Positions 23,680 through 30,095 of a DNA stretch of 64,000 nucleotides are shown one piece after another. The translations under genes were made by a program, and so were the position numbers. How positions within the stretch are numbered: the stretch's first letter is position 1; every line of letters starts with the position of its first letter. Below the pieces are notes generated by a model, which saw only the letters and a list, made by a program, of their open reading frames with translations, was not told the origin of the DNA and searched no databases. This DNA comes from Candidatus Harrisonbacteria bacterium (GTDB lineage: Bacteria > Patescibacteriota > Minisyncoccia > UBA6257 > 02-FULL-45-10c). The stretch covers positions 529,099-593,098 of the forward strand of contig JACPTS010000001.1 of assembly GCA_016192685.1 (NCBI GenBank), read 5' to 3'.

Positions 23680-24504
23680 ATGGAAATAATAACAAAGAAA
23701 TTTTATTTAAAGCTTGGTTTATCAGAAAAAGATATTTTAGCTCTTAATAAAGAGCTTTCATTACTCGCTGGACTTAAATTAAGTCCATCTGCCAAACCTC
23801 GTCGTATAGAAATGTTACAAGAGGCCATTCGATGGCCAAAAGGTAAAAATCAAGAAAAAAGGAAAATAACGGAGCTTTATAAATCTGGTGATTTTATAGT
23901 TGCCGTTGGTAAACCAGGAAAAGAAGCGGCGCCAGCTTTCAAACGGAAACATTACATAACTGGCAAGATTACTAATAATCCAAATGACATGAACCCCTTT
24001 GTTATGAGGGGAGGTAAAAAAGTTGGGAATGATTTAACTTTTGCAGAATTATTTGAGCAAATTGAACATTTAATTCGAGCAGATTTACTTGGATTGGAAC
24101 TTTTAGGGATGCTTATATTCAGAATGGCTTTTATGTTAGATCACAAAAAAGATTTAAAGGGGAAATGGAGATATATTCCTCCGGAAAAATCTTTGGCAAT
24201 GCTTAAAAAACGACTCCCTAAAGTTGGCGATATTCCGGTAGATATATTTTTATATTTTCTCGATGTATTAGCTCTCAATGAGGATGTTAAGATGCATACC
24301 TTGGGTCATGAAAATGCTCGATATGATTATGGACGAGTCAATACTTTACTTACCTTTACTCACTTAATTGCAGTTTTATTAAATCGACGCTCTCTAGCAA
24401 AATTTGCTGGTACGTTTGCTCGGCCACCTTCGGGAATGGCTCCACTACCTAAAATAAAAGGACTTTTTGAAACTTATCCTCTTTTATCTCCAGATTTTGT
24501 TTAA
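23680..24504 (+). CDS. Hypothetical protein, possible PD-(D/E)xK nuclease
   Basis: 274 aa. Contains IPVD-x12-EDVK. Its 3' end overlaps the fused LexA-MTase gene by 4 nt in convergent orientation. Confidence 0.3.
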   Translation: MEIITKKFYLKLGLSEKDILALNKELSLLAGLKLSPSAKPRRIEMLQEAIRWPKGKNQEKRKITELYKSGDFIVAVGKPGKEAAPAFKRKHYITGKITNNPNDMNPFVMRGGKKVGNDLTFAELFEQIEHLIRADLLGLELLGMLIFRMAFMLDHKKDLKGKWRYIPPEKSLAMLKKRLPKVGDIPVDIFLYFLDVLALNEDVKMHTLGHENARYDYGRVNTLLTFTHLIAVLLNRRSLAKFAGTFARPPSGMAPLPKIKGLFETYPLLSPDFV

Positions 24505-25967
24505 ATTTTAATCCTTTTTCTTCCCAGAAATAATTTATGTTCTGGAGCAATGAAACCATTTGCGAGGCGTTTGTTTATTATGTCACAGTATTCTTTGTTG
24601 AGCTCGGCCGAAATAAATTGGCGATTTAAATTTCTGCATACATCTATTTCTGCACCACTACCACCAAAGAGAACTAAAACCTTATCTTTTGGCTTAGTTG
24701 ATGATTTAATAAACATTTCAGTTAATTTTTGTGGAATTTGACAAGCGTGAAAAGTTTTTTCTTTGCTGACATTTTTTACAAGATTAAACTCAAACCATGA
24801 GTAAGGCATTCTTCCCTTTGAGCCATTTGCCAGATTTTGACGAATTCTTCTGTCTGTTGGATTTTTATATGGTAACGCTACTGCGTCTTTGAAGAATTTA
24901 TTATCAGCACTTTTACGAACATGAAGTATGCTTCTGTGTGCTGTTGTGAATCTTTTTGGTGTATGTCCGACATTTGTATTATAAACCCAAACATACTCAT
25001 TAATATTAGGAAAATTTATATCTAAGTATTTTACGCGAAGATGTGCATTTTGTTGAGGATAGTTCATCATAAAAAGGTTCCCATCGTTTTTTAGAACTCT
25101 CATTGATTCCTTAGTAAGTTCGGTATACCAATTTAAATAATCGTCAAAATTTCTTGTATAGTTATTACTACCATATCTAATACCGACATTATAATCCGGA
25201 TCCCCAAAAATCATGTCAATGCTATTATTTGGCAGGTCTTTCAAAACATGCATTATATCGCCGTTGTAAACTTTATTGATATATTCAGAAATATTTCCAC
25301 GTTGTTGGGGGCTTTTTTTAGAGGGTAGAATAAATGATTGGTTTAATTGTTTTATCTTATTAGTTTCAATAACATCCAGCATAATTCCTTGAATATGAAA
25401 ATCTTGTCCGCGGCGCACAATTATCGGCTCCATTTTTTTATTTGCCGGTTGTAGACGAACTTGCCCGCGTTCTTTATAGAATTTTTTAAGCGTTGCTCCA
25501 CCATCAACTAAGGCCACAATTTTTTGACCATTTTCAGCAGTGCTTTGGTGGCGCACAAGAATTGTATCGCCATCATTAATATTTTCATCAATCATACTGT
25601 TACCAGCTACTTTTAAAGCGTAAATATTGCTATTGCTGGAATTGGGGAGTTTATTTTTAGGAATCGCTATATTTTCGCTTACAGTATCAAATAGTGTTAA
25701 TGGTTGACCGGCAGCAATAGTGCCCAGTAGGGGAATTTGAACCATTTGTTCATTTTGGTTAGATAATTCAATCCCACGAGAGATGTTATCATTTCGTCGT
25801 AAAAAACCTTTTTCTACAATCGCATCAATATGTTCCAATATCGTTGAGTGCGCGGAGAGGCGAAAATGTTTTTTAATTTCCTCCGTGGTAGGGGAAATAG
25901 ATTGTTTTTTAATAAAATCAGAAACAAAATCGTAAATTTGTTTTTGACGTCTTGTCAGTGTTGCCAT
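24501..25967 (-). CDS. Fusion protein: LexA-type repressor (wHTH plus S24 autopeptidase) fused to a beta-class N4/N6 DNA methyltransferase
   Basis: The N-terminal approximately 200 aa form a complete LexA: wHTH, hinge IPLLGTIAAGQP with the Ala-Gly scissile bond, Ser VAGNSM, Lys ATLKK. The C-terminal approximately 290 aa carry MTase motif IV (IFGDPDYN) ahead of motif I (VLFGGSGAE). Single uninterrupted ORF of 488 aa. Confidence 0.75.
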   Translation of the reverse strand: MATLTRRQKQIYDFVSDFIKKQSISPTTEEIKKHFRLSAHSTILEHIDAIVEKGFLRRNDNISRGIELSNQNEQMVQIPLLGTIAAGQPLTLFDTVSENIAIPKNKLPNSSNSNIYALKVAGNSMIDENINDGDTILVRHQSTAENGQKIVALVDGGATLKKFYKERGQVRLQPANKKMEPIIVRRGQDFHIQGIMLDVIETNKIKQLNQSFILPSKKSPQQRGNISEYINKVYNGDIMHVLKDLPNNSIDMIFGDPDYNVGIRYGSNNYTRNFDDYLNWYTELTKESMRVLKNDGNLFMMNYPQQNAHLRVKYLDINFPNINEYVWVYNTNVGHTPKRFTTAHRSILHVRKSADNKFFKDAVALPYKNPTDRRIRQNLANGSKGRMPYSWFEFNLVKNVSKEKTFHACQIPQKLTEMFIKSSTKPKDKVLVLFGGSGAEIDVCRNLNRQFISAELNKEYCDIINKRLANGFIAPEHKLFLGRKRIKI

Positions 25968-26224
25968 AAGATATTGACTTTCTTAATTCACGCTTCATAT
26001 TAATTATAACCCGACAATTTCCCGACAAGAGGCAAAATTGTGGATAACTTTTCAGTAGTTAAGAATTTGGGAGCATGAAATAAAGAAAAATCCAGATAGG
26101 GTAGTCAATAAAATTATTAAATTTTTGAAATAGAATTTGCTTCTTTTTACGAACTGATTTATACTATTCAGTAATTTAAAAAATAATACGAAAGTAGTAT
26201 TTTCTATTTTAGAAAATAATTTGT

Positions 26225-26677
26225 ATGGCAATTCAAATGGATTTAAAAAAGATTTCGTTGATTCGTATAGAGGGTGCTAAAATACTATTAGATAAAGGAG
26301 ATTATCAAGGTTCTGCATATATGATGGGTCTTGCTCTAGAGTGCGCCTTAAAGGCAACTGTATGCAAAACTCTTAGAATACCCACCTATCCCGAAGATTA
26401 TAATGCCGATAAAAAAGTTCCCGACTTTTTTATGACGCATTCTTTTGTTAGACTATTATTAGTATCTGGTTTAACAGATATATTTAGTGCAAGTAGCAAT
26501 AACGTTAAAGCTTTCGATAACTGGTCCTTTTTTACGATTCAATATCCGGGTGAATGGGTGAGTATGCGCTATAGATTAGATCAGTTTGAACAAGATTTAA
26601 CAGAGGAGTTATATCAATGTTTATATTTTGATGAGAATAGCATTATTAAAGTCATTGAATATCAAAATAGATGGTAG
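26225..26677 (+). CDS. HEPN-like small protein (AT-rich accessory gene)
   Basis: N-terminal helix pattern AKILLDKGDYQGSAYMMGLALECALKA, typical of the HEPN fold. No clear Rx4-6H motif. Confidence 0.35.
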   Translation: MAIQMDLKKISLIRIEGAKILLDKGDYQGSAYMMGLALECALKATVCKTLRIPTYPEDYNADKKVPDFFMTHSFVRLLLVSGLTDIFSASSNNVKAFDNWSFFTIQYPGEWVSMRYRLDQFEQDLTEELYQCLYFDENSIIKVIEYQNRW

Positions 26678-27066
26678 ATAAACTTAAAAAAATATTAAGC
26701 AAAATGAAATCAGATGGAAAACCAGTCTGGCTATTTGCTTTTTTAAAAATGGATGAAATTATAGATAAATGGTCTTTAGTTATTTCTGCGCCTTGGATAA
26801 ATGAACAAAATCGTGATCAAGAATTTGAATATATTATCAATTTGTTAAAAGAAAATCTTAATGGCGAAGAATTATCTTCAATAGCTCGTATTAGTGTTTT
26901 GGCTAAAGATAGTCATTTAAGTCAAGAATTAATGAAGAAAAAAACAGGTGATTTAATAAAGGAAGAACAAATAAATGGCAACATTATTCACGAAGGTCAA
27001 ATATTGGAATCAAGCGTTGAGGCGCAGTGGCCATCAAATAATTTATTTGCTAAACAATCAAGTTAA
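26671..27066 (+). CDS. Hypothetical protein (overlapping partner of the HEPN-like gene)
   Basis: 131 aa. Overlaps the upstream gene by 7 nt. AT-rich. Confidence 0.3.
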   Translation: MVDKLKKILSKMKSDGKPVWLFAFLKMDEIIDKWSLVISAPWINEQNRDQEFEYIINLLKENLNGEELSSIARISVLAKDSHLSQELMKKKTGDLIKEEQINGNIIHEGQILESSVEAQWPSNNLFAKQSS

Positions 27067-27079
27067 ATTTACTTTTATA

Positions 27080-27192
27080 AAAATTTTCTGCTAATCTATA
27101 CCAAAACCGGCGTTATATTTTTTAAATAAAATTAATCAAACCGAGTCAAATCAGTTTATTATCGCAAAACCTGCCCTTGGCAGGTTTTGCGT
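27080..27192 (+). repeat. Intergenic repeat module, copy 1 (partial: ttctgctaa-ctataccaaaaccggcg plus terminal hairpin)
   Basis: Shares the ttttctgctaatctataccaaaaccggcg segment and the hairpin cgcaaaacctgcc-cttg-gcaggttttgcg with the modules at 27969 and 29087. Confidence 0.6.
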
Positions 27193-27289
27193 CAGATTAT
27201 TTTATGATAAAATTTATAGATTAAATTTATGTGTAAATCCGAAAATAATTTTGCTTATATTGACGGCGCTAATTTGCATAAAGGCATAT

Positions 27290-27350
27290 TGAAGGTCTAA
27301 AAAGAAAAAGCCCCCGGCGGATACGGATTCCGCAGGGGTCTTTTTCGTAG
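27290..27350. terminator. Bidirectional terminator-like hairpin
   Basis: aaaaag-cccc.ggcgga...tccgcagggg-tcttttt. Confidence 0.45.
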
Positions 27351-27426
27351 TGATACTTATACTATAGCATATTCAATGTTGAAGTCAATTGGGTGTTTTA
27401 GGAATAGTTTATATAAAATATAATTT

Positions 27427-27957
27427 ATGCAAATACCCAGACGGAAGTCGGAAGAACTTAGGAGGAAAGTTGAGGGGCCGATTCATATAACTGAAGAGGG
27501 TTTTAAGCGCCTGAAAGAACGGCTGGCGCATCTTAAACTTGCGCTGCCTGGCTATATCGTTGAGACGCAACGGGCCGCCGCATTCGGCGATCGGTCGGAT
27601 AATGCTGAATATAAAGATGCAAAATCAAGATTAACCCGCACGCACTTACAAATTTTAAGAATTCAGGATCAAATTAAGCGGGCGGTGATAATTCCTTCGG
27701 GTCAGAATACTTCTGGCTCGGTCCAGCTCGGTTCCACTGTTATATTGCGGGCCGAAGGCCTCGAGTATTCCCGAGGGGCAGGTGAGTCGCGGAAAACTTT
27801 TCAAATTCTTGGCGCGCATGAAACCAATCCAACTTTAGGGCGTATTTCATTTCAGTCGCCGCTCGGTGCCGCGCTTATGAATCACAAAAAAGGCAATGCC
27901 GTCACAATCCAGACCCCAACCGGTCCCCAAAAATATATTATTTTAGAAATTAAATAA
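27427..27957 (+). CDS. greA: Transcription elongation factor GreA
   Basis: GDRSDNAEY motif and a C-terminal FKBP-like domain. 176 aa. Confidence 0.85.
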   Translation: MQIPRRKSEELRRKVEGPIHITEEGFKRLKERLAHLKLALPGYIVETQRAAAFGDRSDNAEYKDAKSRLTRTHLQILRIQDQIKRAVIIPSGQNTSGSVQLGSTVILRAEGLEYSRGAGESRKTFQILGAHETNPTLGRISFQSPLGAALMNHKKGNAVTIQTPTGPQKYIILEIK

Positions 27958-27968
27958 ATCATTCGGTA

Positions 27969-28095
27969 AAAATTCCCTTTCCTGAAAATTTTCTTTTTGG
28001 TTATCTTCTCTAATTGTATCGAATGATTGAATAGTTTCAAAAATAAAATTTGCCCTTCTAAAAATTTTCTGCTAACCTATACCAAAACCAGCGGC
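27969..28095 (+). repeat. Intergenic repeat module, copy 2 (approximately 125 bp)
   Basis: aaattccctttcctgaaaattttctttttggtta(t/c)cttctctaattgtatcgaatgattgaatagtttcaaaaataaaatttgcccttctaaaaattttctgctaacctataccaaaacc is near-identical to 29087-29212. Confidence 0.8.
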
Positions 28096-28173
28096 AAAAA
28101 TAGCGTTTTTGCAATACAGTTATCCACCAAAGTTATTTATTACAGGTTAGTTATTATAGATTATCCGCAACAT

Positions 28174-28199
28174 TCTAACATTCTGCAGAATGTTGGAAT
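28174..28199. promoter_or_regulatory. 26-bp palindrome (candidate ArsR-family operator), upstream copy
   Basis: ttctaacattctgcagaatgttGgaa, with 1 mismatch from a perfect palindrome, overlapping the regulator start. Confidence 0.6.
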
Positions 28200-28495
28200 G
28201 TTGCGGGAGTAATGATATAGTGAAAATTATGAAAACGCCGAAACAACTAGAAAGACACTTTAAGGGGGTAGCCAATCATTGGCGGATCGCGATTTTATCA
28301 ATCGTGCATCAAAATGAGGGGATTGCGGTTGATGGCATCACGAAAGAGCTTAATGCGAATTTTAAAACCATTTCCCAACACACTAGATCATTGGTCCAAG
28401 CCGGCCTTTTGAATAAAAAATATCTCGGCCGCCAAGTAACCCACACCCTCTCGCCTTACGGGAAACTTTTTCTTAAATTTATTAAATCATTCTAA
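28190..28495 (+). CDS. ArsR/SmtB-family HTH transcriptional regulator
   Basis: HWRIAILSIV...GIAVDGITKELNANFKTISQHTRSLVQAGLL wHTH. 101 aa. Confidence 0.7.
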   Translation: MLECCGSNDIVKIMKTPKQLERHFKGVANHWRIAILSIVHQNEGIAVDGITKELNANFKTISQHTRSLVQAGLLNKKYLGRQVTHTLSPYGKLFLKFIKSF

Positions 28496-28515
28496 CATTC
28501 TGCAGAATGTTAGAA
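28490..28515. promoter_or_regulatory. Perfect 26-bp palindrome, downstream copy
   Basis: ttctaacattctgcagaatgttagaa, which is its own reverse complement. Overlaps the regulator stop. Confidence 0.65.
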
Positions 28516-28677
28516 TAAAGTTTCTAAAGATAAAATTCCCTTTCCTGAAAATTTTTTGCAGCGGGGTTAAAATTTTTCAAAACATTCTCAAGTGTGTAAG
28601 GATGTTATTTTTAATATAAAATTCTTTTGCCTGAAAATTTCCGCCTGTTATGGATTAAAGAATGCTAGAATAAACAA

Positions 28678-29076
28678 ATGAGAACTTATCAGGAATTTTA
28701 TCAGAGCATCCAGAAACCATTTTTTTCTCCGCCGGAATGGGCGTTCGGGTTGGCGTGGGGGATTATTTATCCGCTGATTGTGGTTGCTGGAATATATTTG
28801 ATTTATCTGGTTTATAAAAAACAAGCGCCGAAAAGTTTACTATGGGTTTTTCTTGCAAATTTGGCCGCGAATCTTTTATTTACTCCAATTCAGCTTGGTT
28901 TGAAATCGCTTTGGCCGGCGTCAGTTGTTATTTTAATAATTTTAGGAACTTTGGCTTTTTTTGAATATAAAATCCGGCTTCATTCCAAATTGATTTTTGT
29001 TTTGCTTTTGCCTTATCTTTTGTGGGGCGCATTTGCCACTGCGCTTCAGCTGTCAATCACCCTTTTAAATTTTTAA
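28678..29076 (+). CDS. TspO/MBR-like tryptophan-rich membrane protein (short)
   Basis: KPFFSPPEWAFGLAWGIIYPLIVVAGIYLI matches the TspO KPxWxPP...VWxxLY signature. 132 aa, about 4 TM helices. Confidence 0.5.
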   Translation: MRTYQEFYQSIQKPFFSPPEWAFGLAWGIIYPLIVVAGIYLIYLVYKKQAPKSLLWVFLANLAANLLFTPIQLGLKSLWPASVVILIILGTLAFFEYKIRLHSKLIFVLLLPYLLWGAFATALQLSITLLNF

Positions 29077-29086
29077 TTTAAATAAA

Positions 29087-29283
29087 ATTCCCTTTCCTGA
29101 AAATTTTCTTTTTGGTTACCTTCTCTAATTGTATCGAATGATTGAATAGTTTCAAAAATAAAATTTGCCCTTCTAAAAATTTTCTGCTAACCTATACCAA
29201 AACCGGCGCTACAATTTTTAATAAAATAACCCAAATTAATCAGATAATTCGCAAAACTTGCTTCCGCGGCAGGTTTTTTGTCA
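29087..29283 (+). repeat. Intergenic repeat module, copy 3 (full: approximately 125-bp core plus terminal hairpin)
   Basis: Near-identical to 27969-28095 and extends through cgcaaaacttgcttccgcggcaggtttttt. Confidence 0.8.
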
Positions 29284-29415: not shown

Positions 29416-29673
29416 ATGGAAAATAAAGAATTCATTTCAACAGTTGAGCTGGCCCAGATCTTGGGTATCAGTCGGCAAGCGGTAGCTGACAAAATTAAAC
29501 ACGGCAAAATAAAAGCCCAAAAATCCGGCCGGGTTTATGTGATTCAAAGAAAAGATATCCCGGAAATTTTAGGCGAGGTTTTAACCGAAAGCGATAAAAA
29601 AGAAATAGAGGTGGCGGTTAAGAAAACCGTAAGAGAGTACGGCGAAACTTTAAGATTGCTTGGAAAAGAATGA
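29416..29673 (+). CDS. HTH (excisionase/MerR-like) antitoxin, Phd-like partner of Doc
   Basis: STVELAQILGISRQAVADKIKHGKI HTH. 85 aa. Overlaps the toxin gene by 4 nt. Confidence 0.6.
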   Translation: MENKEFISTVELAQILGISRQAVADKIKHGKIKAQKSGRVYVIQRKDIPEILGEVLTESDKKEIEVAVKKTVREYGETLRLLGKE

Positions 29674-30095
29674 AATCCATCACAATATCCGAAGTGGAAT
29701 ACGTGGCGTTTCGATTGGCGAAAGAGCATATGCTGTGGGATGAGCCGATTCCGGATTTCGGTTCCCGTTTCCCGAATATTTTAGAAAGCTGCCTGGCGTC
29801 CCCATTCCAGTCTTTCGGCGGCAAAAAATTATACAAAGGATTGCTGGAAAAGGCATCGGTATTATTTTATCTGATGGTGAAAAATCATCCTTTTAAAAAC
29901 GGCAATAAAAGAATCGCAATGACAACACTGCTTTATTTTTTATATAAAAATAAAAAATGGATAAAAGTTGATAATCAGGAACTTTATAATTTTGCCAAAT
30001 GGGTGGCTGCCAGCAATCCTAAATTAAGGCGAGAAACAATTGCCGCCATTAATAAATTTCTCTCAACTTATTTACAAAATTTTATGATAAAATAA
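29670..30095 (+). CDS. doc: Doc/Fic-family toxin (death-on-curing)
   Basis: Fic/Doc motif HPFKNGNKR (HxFx(D/N)GNKR). 141 aa. Confidence 0.75.
   Translation: MKSITISEVEYVAFRLAKEHMLWDEPIPDFGSRFPNILESCLASPFQSFGGKKLYKGLLEKASVLFYLMVKNHPFKNGNKRIAMTTLLYFLYKNKKWIKVDNQELYNFAKWVAASNPKLRRETIAAINKFLSTYLQNFMIK

Follow-up and report, generated by a model that had tools for sequence, protein, structure and literature searches.

Do two small overlapping genes, located between dnaK and greA in the genome of a Candidatus Harrisonbacteria bacterium, constitute a toxin-antitoxin (TA) or abortive-infection module, and if so, which of them would act as the effector and which would keep it in check? The genes, here termed A and B, lie within a stretch of 64,000 nucleotides (GenBank assembly GCA_016192685.1, contig JACPTS010000001.1, positions 529,099 to 593,098 of the forward strand; referred to as the window) and are both annotated in the database as "hypothetical protein" (locus tags HYY86_02960/02965). 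The original prediction, made from the letters of this DNA, had put forward the pair as a candidate TA/abortive-infection module with a HEPN-like first member, and as a candidate it gains support from the HEPN fold of A, the linkage of both genes and their mobility. With modest confidence, we favor a reading of the pair as a self-contained module of two genes, horizontally mobile and of the TA-like or abortive-infection type, in which A would be the ribonuclease (RNase) effector and B its cognate inhibitor.

The pair consists of the following elements, with positions counted from the first nucleotide of the window:

26225-26677, forward strand: gene A, open reading frame (ORF) of 150 amino acids
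26671-27066, forward strand: gene B, ORF of 131 amino acids
26671-26677, forward strand: stop/start overlap of A and B, 7 nt, ATGGTAG

Both ORFs and their 7-nt overlap had been claimed beforehand and were recovered with identical lengths and positions. Within the overlap, TGG TAG is read as Trp-stop in A, and ATG GTA as Met-Val in B. The same junction, (A/T)TGGT(A/G)(A/G), recurs in nearly all 26 related loci, including the variants ATGGTGA and ATGGTAA, and is therefore not a product of chance; its conservation explains the C-terminal Trp of A and the Met-Val start of B seen in nearly every member. Distant relatives keep it as well, in the form of ...W-stop overlapping ...L-V. Based on this arrangement, translational coupling of the two genes is predicted. 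The AT-richness relative to the neighboring genes is likewise pronounced, as the GC content of A and B amounts to 0.309 compared with a window mean of 0.409 (standard deviation 0.039, 842-nt windows), placing the pair among the lowest 1.3%. If windows of this size are ranked by GC content, the lowest 15 in the 64 kb all lie inside 25851-27450, making this the most AT-rich stretch of the whole window, while the flanking genes dnaK and greA reach 0.454 and 0.475, respectively. Comparison with the 75%-identical orthologues resulted in ratios of nonsynonymous to synonymous substitutions (dN/dS) of 0.10 for A and 0.18 for B, and both can thus be considered real genes under purifying selection.

Gene A is predicted to encode a divergent HEPN-T protein (PF05168-like, of the AF0298/AbiV-like "alternative histidine" type) and, as such, an RNase effector. 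Pfam PF05168 was matched with 18.0 bits (E 0.0033) by residues 6-49, corresponding to helices 1 and 2 only. The peptide GSAYMMGLALECALKA, in which a HEPN helix pattern had been recognized originally, represents helix 2 of A and is part of the region aligning to the Pfam HEPN model. A profile search among 1.8 billion representatives retrieved 1502 relatives of A at E<=1e-3. Searched against HEPN families with hidden Markov models (HMMs), the protein itself stays below the threshold, and 44 of 57 diverse relatives match PF05168 at E<=0.01 (best 3.7e-11), with weak matches to HEPN_AbiV in seven of the 57; a homologue of a Klebsiella phage (28.7 bits) and one of Acinetobacter (26.8 bits) are above the PF05168 threshold. 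In hhalign, the family profile of A aligned with four PDB HEPN sequences over helices 1 and 2 (E 5.8e-5), with negative controls at 0.2-0.5% probability. A profile search of PDB using the 57-member alignment gave no sequence match at E<=1, and the HEPN assignment therefore rests on the fold, the Pfam transitivity, and hhalign. In respect to the fold, the structural model of A shows a four-helix up-down bundle, in which two alpha-hairpins are joined through an insert separating helix 2 from helix 3, as is characteristic of HEPN proteins, and the HEPN-like nature ascribed to the first member is thereby borne out.

Within this model, E39 is located in helix 2, H72 in the insert (residues 51-93), and the dipeptide R115-Y116 after helix 3. 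Across the 57 relatives, which range down to 25% identity, E39, K43, H72, W111, and Y116 show no variation, and 56 sequences retain R115. The fully conserved E39 aligns with the Glu of A-E-K-A-L-K in 1ufb and provides the acidic residue of helix 2, which in HEPN proteins is found next to the active site (PMC3710099). The canonical Rx4-6H at the end of helix 3 is absent, as no His follows R115 and the columns 117-125 are variable among the 57 sequences. HEPN-T (PF05168) proteins losing the motif His were described to "have a conserved H elsewhere" (Anantharaman et al., PMC3710099), the alternative His of AbiV and AF0298-like proteins originating from the insert between helices 2 and 3 (PMC3710099), and the E39/H72/R115 pattern of A fits this published description of HEPN-T. 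Membership of A in the HEPN fold stands, membership in the canonical catalytic group does not; its catalytic constellation is non-canonical but plausibly intact.

The second protein, B, is predicted to be the cognate binding partner and an antitoxin-like regulator of A, originating from an uncharacterised family. It was modeled as an alpha/beta domain with five strands at a predicted local distance difference test score (pLDDT) of 87.5, with residues 123-131 below 50 and the last ~17 residues being disordered and variable. A total of 217 homologues were obtained at E<=0.01. Within the best 120 of them, a single PF28292 match was the only Pfam domain, and a local Pfam scan did not reproduce it; the window protein together with 45 diverse family members gave no Pfam or PADLOC match beyond noise. 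A Pfam PCI match of B (E 0.0029) occurred in just one of the 45 family members and was treated as chance, and matches to PADLOC Csx19 as well as NCBIfam EpsZ/VOC were dismissed as sub-threshold noise. A sequence-profile search of PDB with B resulted in noise only (G-alpha, CmeR). Invariant residues of the close family are D28, W34, W42, N102, and G103; distant homologues keep only the hydrophobic pattern and an I-N-G motif. This loss of the polar invariants argues for a binding protein and not for an enzyme.

As an alternative to a protein partner, the B region could provide an antitoxin RNA in an AbiV-like type III arrangement. The lactococcal AbiV sets the precedent of a HEPN RNase that is inhibited by a transcript, abiV2 (bioRxiv 10.1101/2024.05.05.592566), and some A relatives do match HEPN_AbiV weakly. 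However, B is conserved as a protein, considering its dN/dS of 0.18, the 217 homologues with conserved motifs and the pLDDT of its model, and its domain is also found as part of larger proteins. An RNA antitoxin is therefore highly improbable.

An MNT (minimal nucleotidyltransferase) partner, in turn, would make A-B a class II HEPN/MNT system (PMC7641770), and this possibility prompted a test of B by motif and by hhalign. The motif GSX10DXD is absent from all 45 B sequences, and alignment of the B profile to four PDB MNT sequences yielded a probability of 0.4%, equaling the negative control. Foldseek with the B model returned nothing below E 0.015, with all TM scores <0.45, and its weak structural matches to MafI2, BolA, CDF C-terminal domains, RimP, acyl-CoA synthetase C-domains, and MNTs are on one level, meaning that unrelated alpha/beta folds match B as well as MNTs do. 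Judged by motif, hhalign, and Foldseek, B is not a minimal nucleotidyltransferase, and its descent from an MNT, though conceivable, is unsupported. A degenerate class II HEPN/MNT system, in which B as a former nucleotidyltransferase now serves as stoichiometric inhibitor of a PF05168-type HEPN, faces the same evidence and in addition the reversed order of A-B compared with MNT-HEPN; we consider it unlikely.

Examination of the genomic distribution revealed a B homologue directly downstream of the A homologue in 26 of 27 loci. Those obtained from species-representative genomes (21 loci) belong nearly all to the candidate phyla radiation (CPR) and cover about ten of its lineages, including Saccharibacteria, Andersenbacteria, Microgenomates, Paceibacterota, Levyibacteriota, Kaiserbacteria, Roizmanbacteria, Berkelbacteria, Dojkabacteria, and Uhrbacteria. 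Their neighborhoods are unrelated, with 107 Pfam families encoded in 122 flanking genes; N6_N4 DNA methylases (four loci) and serine recombinases (two loci) are the most recurrent neighbors. The pair is placed, e.g., in an island hosting a diversity-generating retroelement (DGR), a resolvase, and ArdC, next to a ParB-methylase, or in the gap between RNase J and FtsK, and some loci adjoin tRNA synthetases. The phyletic distribution of the pair is sporadic. With two small genes in the same direction that overlap, stay linked, and occur in variable or mobile contexts, it shows the generic organization of a type II-like module.

The pair extends well beyond these lineages. Distant A homologues of 25-35% identity still reach E<1e-34 to the family HMM and are followed by a distant B in an overlapping ORF, which hhalign recognized at 70% and 90% probability when single sequences were aligned, and at 91.7% (E 7.7e-7) from profile to profile. 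These distant loci comprise a contig from a metagenome with an IS200-type transposase as neighbor, a position directly downstream of an MmeI-like type IIG restriction-modification (R-M) enzyme, the 13.9-kb Acinetobacter johnsonii plasmid pAJ4131, where the pair is found beside BrnT/BrnA and A carries the PGAP label "HEPN domain-containing protein," and the Klebsiella phage Kp4864-1. Among 5426 complete E. coli genomes, 190 (3.5%) harbor a distant version of the pair, without exception one copy per chromosome, placed in a lambdoid prophage between P/ren and the nin region (e.g., L035 on the EC21Z-014 chromosome NZ_CP101274.1, 8001-8797), the respective proteins being WP_001038620 ("HEPN domain-containing protein") and WP_000520499 (hypothetical). 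The slot between replication and nin genes is known for hosting accessory and defence genes, as reported for Gifsy-1 in the HepS paper (PMC13043305). A scan of IMG/VR viral contigs gave pattern matches and no confirmed relative, and in the literature on the E. coli and Acinetobacter accessions, on PDC-M28, and on HEPN with Patescibacteria, no characterisation of the pair was found.

This distribution bears on the question whether a conflict system is at hand at all. A and B could instead represent a non-toxic RNA-binding or processing factor, or a regulatory HEPN like MtlR, being merely patchily distributed. Non-catalytic and housekeeping HEPN proteins do exist (sacsin, MtlR, Las1 with Grc3; PMC3710099), many neighbors of the pair have housekeeping functions, as at the RNase J-FtsK locus and at the loci adjoining tRNA synthetases, and the synteny with dnaK and greA is kept in the closest relative. 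On the other hand, the sporadic distribution, the unrelated neighborhoods, and the anomalous composition of the pair, as well as its occurrence on plasmids, in a phage, in accessory slots of prophages, and together with R-M genes and recombinases, speak against such a role, which we regard as improbable.

Variant architectures were found in addition to the standard pair. On the plasmid NZ_CP140099.1 of Deinococcus sp. AB2017081 (L033, 2995-4763), an A-like HEPN gene is followed by an overlapping gene for a 460-aa protein, in which an N-terminal B-like domain (hhalign 98%, E 1e-13) is fused to DUF3800 (Pfam E 3e-4), which is described from type VII retrons as a putative effector domain of RNase H2-like type (PMC7736814). 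GCA_026395725.1 (L036, JAPLYE010000274.1, 1138-1726) encodes A and B fused in frame (P0083); this fusion is cut by the contig end and is unverified. A protein of 287 aa (P0078) represents a tandem A-A duplication, in keeping with HEPN dimers. In a Saccharibacteria metagenome-assembled genome (L023, CAYPKR010000001.1, 4001-4803), a 127-aa A-like ORF overlaps by 4 nt with a gene for a 140-aa Mrr_cat protein of the restriction-endonuclease fold in place of B. Mrr_cat as an alternative partner was rejected and the locus judged to be a disrupted module, because its A is C-terminally truncated. Separately, another A fragment (P0018) was found attached to sequence from a type I R-M specificity subunit (PF01420).

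These architectures also bear on the polarity of the pair. With reversed roles, B would be the toxic or effector component and A an inactive HEPN serving as upstream antitoxin or regulator. The position of A as the 5' gene would suit this assignment, as the antitoxin is encoded 5' in MNT-HEPN and most type II dyads (PMC3710099), and so would the lack of the canonical Rx4-6H in A, the A-like ORF preceding an Mrr-type nuclease in Saccharibacteria, and the fusion of the B domain to the putative nuclease DUF3800 in Deinococcus. However, even deeply diverged A proteins retain an invariant polar constellation (E39, K43, H72, R115, Y116) where HEPN proteins have their active site, more than binding alone would require, whereas in B hardly any polar residue stays invariant among distant homologues and no similarity to any toxin family is seen, and the Mrr locus, with its truncated A, appears to be a disrupted module. 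Reversed polarity is thus quite unlikely.

Returning to A as the effector and B as its inhibitor, a mechanism can be proposed. By analogy with other HEPN enzymes, A would be an endoribonuclease forming a dimer with a composite active site, contributed by E39 of helix 2, R115 at the end of helix 3 (together with Y116), and H72 of the insert, the latter replacing the His of the canonical Rx4-6H. The non-enzymatic B would be produced in fixed proportion to A by way of the overlapping stop/start and would neutralise A by binding it and keeping it inactive. As trigger, loss, degradation, or displacement of B, e.g., by a phage product, would free A, whose toxicity would then consist in cleavage of cellular RNA, leading to growth arrest. 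Observed in support are the HEPN fold with its conserved site residues, the A-B linkage through a recurrent overlap, purifying selection on either gene, the scattered occurrence in variable and in part mobile or defence-related settings, which in the window include a swapped putative R-M cassette and a decayed NYN gene, the resemblance of A relatives to PDC-M28A, and the domain fusions, an indirect hint at contact between A and B; RNase activity, toxicity, binding, neutralisation, and trigger are inferred.

Several observations weigh against this assignment. A fails the gathering threshold of PF05168 (18 vs 22 bits), and lacking an Rx4-6H it need not be active as an RNase. A DNA-binding domain, as carried by most type II antitoxins, is missing in B. 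Toxin-first order is found in a minority of type II TA modules and is the reverse of MNT-HEPN dyads. Furthermore, the pair is rare, being present in one of 50,697 isolated phages and in five of 72,556 plasmids, and its synteny with the 75%-identical relative indicates stable inheritance over short range.

More tentatively, and at a level of confidence that leaves it a possibility rather than an expectation, the B domain might be a hitherto unrecognised, dedicated HEPN-regulating domain, acting as inhibitor and possibly as infection sensor, which together with the alternative-His HEPN makes up a new and ancient defence family. If true, this family would span CPR, Proteobacteria, Deinococcus, plasmids, and lambdoid prophages, include a variant recruiting a second nuclease (DUF3800), and rank among the small number of modules dedicated to phage defence or addiction that are on record for reduced CPR genomes.

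Two further elements frame the genes and are candidates for the control of an A-B operon:

26158..26205, forward strand: block conserved upstream of A, GATTTATACTATTCAGTAATTT...GAAAGTAGTATTTT, as candidate promoter/operator for an A-B operon
27163..27191, forward strand: perfect 13-bp hairpin GCAAAACCTGCCC ttg GGCAGGTTTTGC, ~100 nt past the stop codon of B

The upstream block contains a TATACT -10-like hexamer and a small palindrome, TACTattcAGTA, and is ~95% identical to its counterpart in the related locus L001, the stretch between this block and the promoter region of the neighboring lexA-methyltransferase gene being diverged or replaced. A scan for sigma-70 promoters performed no better than shuffled expectation in this AT-rich DNA. 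Folding of the RNA of 27060-27200 gave -28.5 kcal/mol (z -3.6 vs shuffles), and the hairpin may serve as the operon terminator; a terminator scan did not call it, and no T-run follows directly.

The surroundings of the pair had been described as a small accessory patch between dnaK and greA, to which the following features belong:

24501-25967, reverse strand: LexA-DNA methyltransferase (MTase) fusion, with LexA_DNA_bind, Peptidase_S24, and N6_N4_Mtase (L001, 4146-5687)
23680-24504, forward strand: convergent 274-aa gene, 4-nt overlap with LexA-MTase (L001, 3427-4128)
27229..27300, forward strand: remnant of a NYN (PIN-like RNase) gene, reading MCKSENNFAYIDGANLHKGILKV-stop, ~22 N-terminal codons

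The accessory character holds in terms of composition, with a GC content of 0.32-0.35 for the 274-aa gene and LexA-MTase, but the patch is no recent insertion in this lineage, since the arrangement is syntenic in one related genome (L001-L003). This closest relative (75% identity in A) keeps the order dnaK - ORF - LexA-MTase - A - B - NYN - greA. Synteny in the close relative and unrelated neighborhoods further out show the pair to be inherited vertically over short range and reshuffled over long range. A-B is retained but has diverged faster than its flanks, DNA identity to the relative amounting to 78% for A-B, 85% for dnaK, and 88.5% for greA. The LexA half of the fusion is ~96% identical to that of the relative and the MTase half ~27%. 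Its convergent neighbor, of 274 aa here and 233 aa in the relative, is unrelated between both and without Pfam match. This looks like the swap of a putative R-M cassette fused to lexA. In L001, ...KTDNNYAFIDSQNLNLGIQK... runs into a 162-aa NYN protein (PF01936, E 9e-12), and NYN is intact between B and greA in L001-L003; the remnant in the window consequently points to an internal deletion in this lineage. The dnaK-greA gap thus behaves as a small variable island.

Additional repeats and genes were observed in and next to this island. Upstream of lexA-MTase, the direct repeat CCCGACAA-ttt-CCCGACAA (26010-26028, forward strand) lies in a block almost perfectly conserved in L001, has no other copy with fewer than three mismatches in the window, and represents a candidate operator for LexA. 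Exactly three copies of the 25-nt element TTTTCTGCTAAYCTATACCAAAACC are present in the 64 kb (27084-27108, 28065-28089, and 29180-29204, forward strand), where chance would give none, and they are placed shortly downstream of B, of greA, and of a gene for a membrane protein, respectively. Two copies are contained in a 144-nt repeat of 92% identity (27950-28093 and 29065-29208). None of the retrieved loci contains this element, which might act as a cassette boundary or promoter or represent a small mobile repeat. A near-perfect 42-nt palindrome (28165-28206; two abutting 21-nt arms, 95% complementary) is found at the start of an ArsR/MarR-like winged helix-turn-helix gene (28190-28495), and a near-identical 29-nt copy (28488-28516) at the end of this gene. 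An Rfam search in and around A-B gave only spurious miRNA matches, on the palindrome at 28165-28206. In parallel, a second TA-like pair is encoded 2.4 kb downstream (29416-30095, forward strand), comprising an HTH_17 protein of 85 aa and, with a 4-nt overlap, a Fic/Doc-family protein of 141 aa.

How does the pair compare with known systems? Relative to HEPN-T proteins (PF05168; TT1696 1ufb, ST0689 1wol, AF0298 2hsb, TM0613 1o3u, 4nqf), A scores below the gathering threshold, has a longer insert (51-93), and shows conserved residues of its own family (C47, W100, W111, and the C-terminal Trp), its partner not being an MNT. RnlA of the RnlA-RnlB system is far larger than A, comprises several domains, and has the canonical HEPN motif. 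Neither A nor B has sequence or top-ranked structural similarity to RnlA/RnlB. What A-B shares with RnlA-RnlB and LsoA-LsoB, according to PMC8266594, is the toxin-first order, a HEPN RNase, a small protein inhibitor, and the link to phage defence. The likeness to HEPN/MNT (HepT-MntA) type VII systems consists of a small HEPN combined with a small alpha/beta partner of ~100-130 aa and of mobility and sporadic occurrence; HEPNs of class II HEPN/MNT likewise are without RX4HXY (PMC7641770). The latter motif, containing the AMPylated Tyr of type VII class I, is absent in A, whose family has R-Y instead. B differs from MNTs by the lack of GSX10DXD and of any sequence relation as well as by the reversed gene order, and AMPylation-based neutralisation is therefore not expected. 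In AbiV (PF18728), the antitoxin is an RNA, whereas the partner in A-B is a conserved protein, and A matches neither PF18728 nor the PADLOC AbiV model. Finally, 46 of the 57 A relatives match PDC-M28A of PADLOC (best E 2.1e-10; window protein 2.9e-4), a component of PDC-M28, an unvalidated phage-defence candidate derived by guilt-by-embedding and consisting of a three-family cassette (Payne et al. 2024 preprint). Membership in PDC-M28 was rejected, as only A is weakly similar and B, its family members, the distant partners, and the neighbors match nothing of PADLOC convincingly.

A-B is accordingly a candidate HEPN-based two-gene conflict module of a known type, with a new partner family and a HEPN of the alternative-His type; it is not categorically new and not at odds with present knowledge. 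Its main value lies in defining a widely scattered family that has members in E. coli. HEPN RNases are recurrent in TA, abortive-infection, and CRISPR-associated systems, which differ in how the enzyme is restrained. MNTs restrain their HEPN by AMPylation, AbiV is inhibited by an antitoxin RNA, RnlB serves as a protein antitoxin, and in HepS and Tha the restraint is allosteric. The homologues in E. coli prophages and on a small Acinetobacter plasmid make the pair accessible to study in standard hosts without CPR culture. If our reading of A-B is true, it would provide a candidate module for CPR/Patescibacteria, whose defence repertoire is poorly known, and would add to these another solution for HEPN restraint, by a partner without recognisable relatives and without Pfam or PADLOC model.
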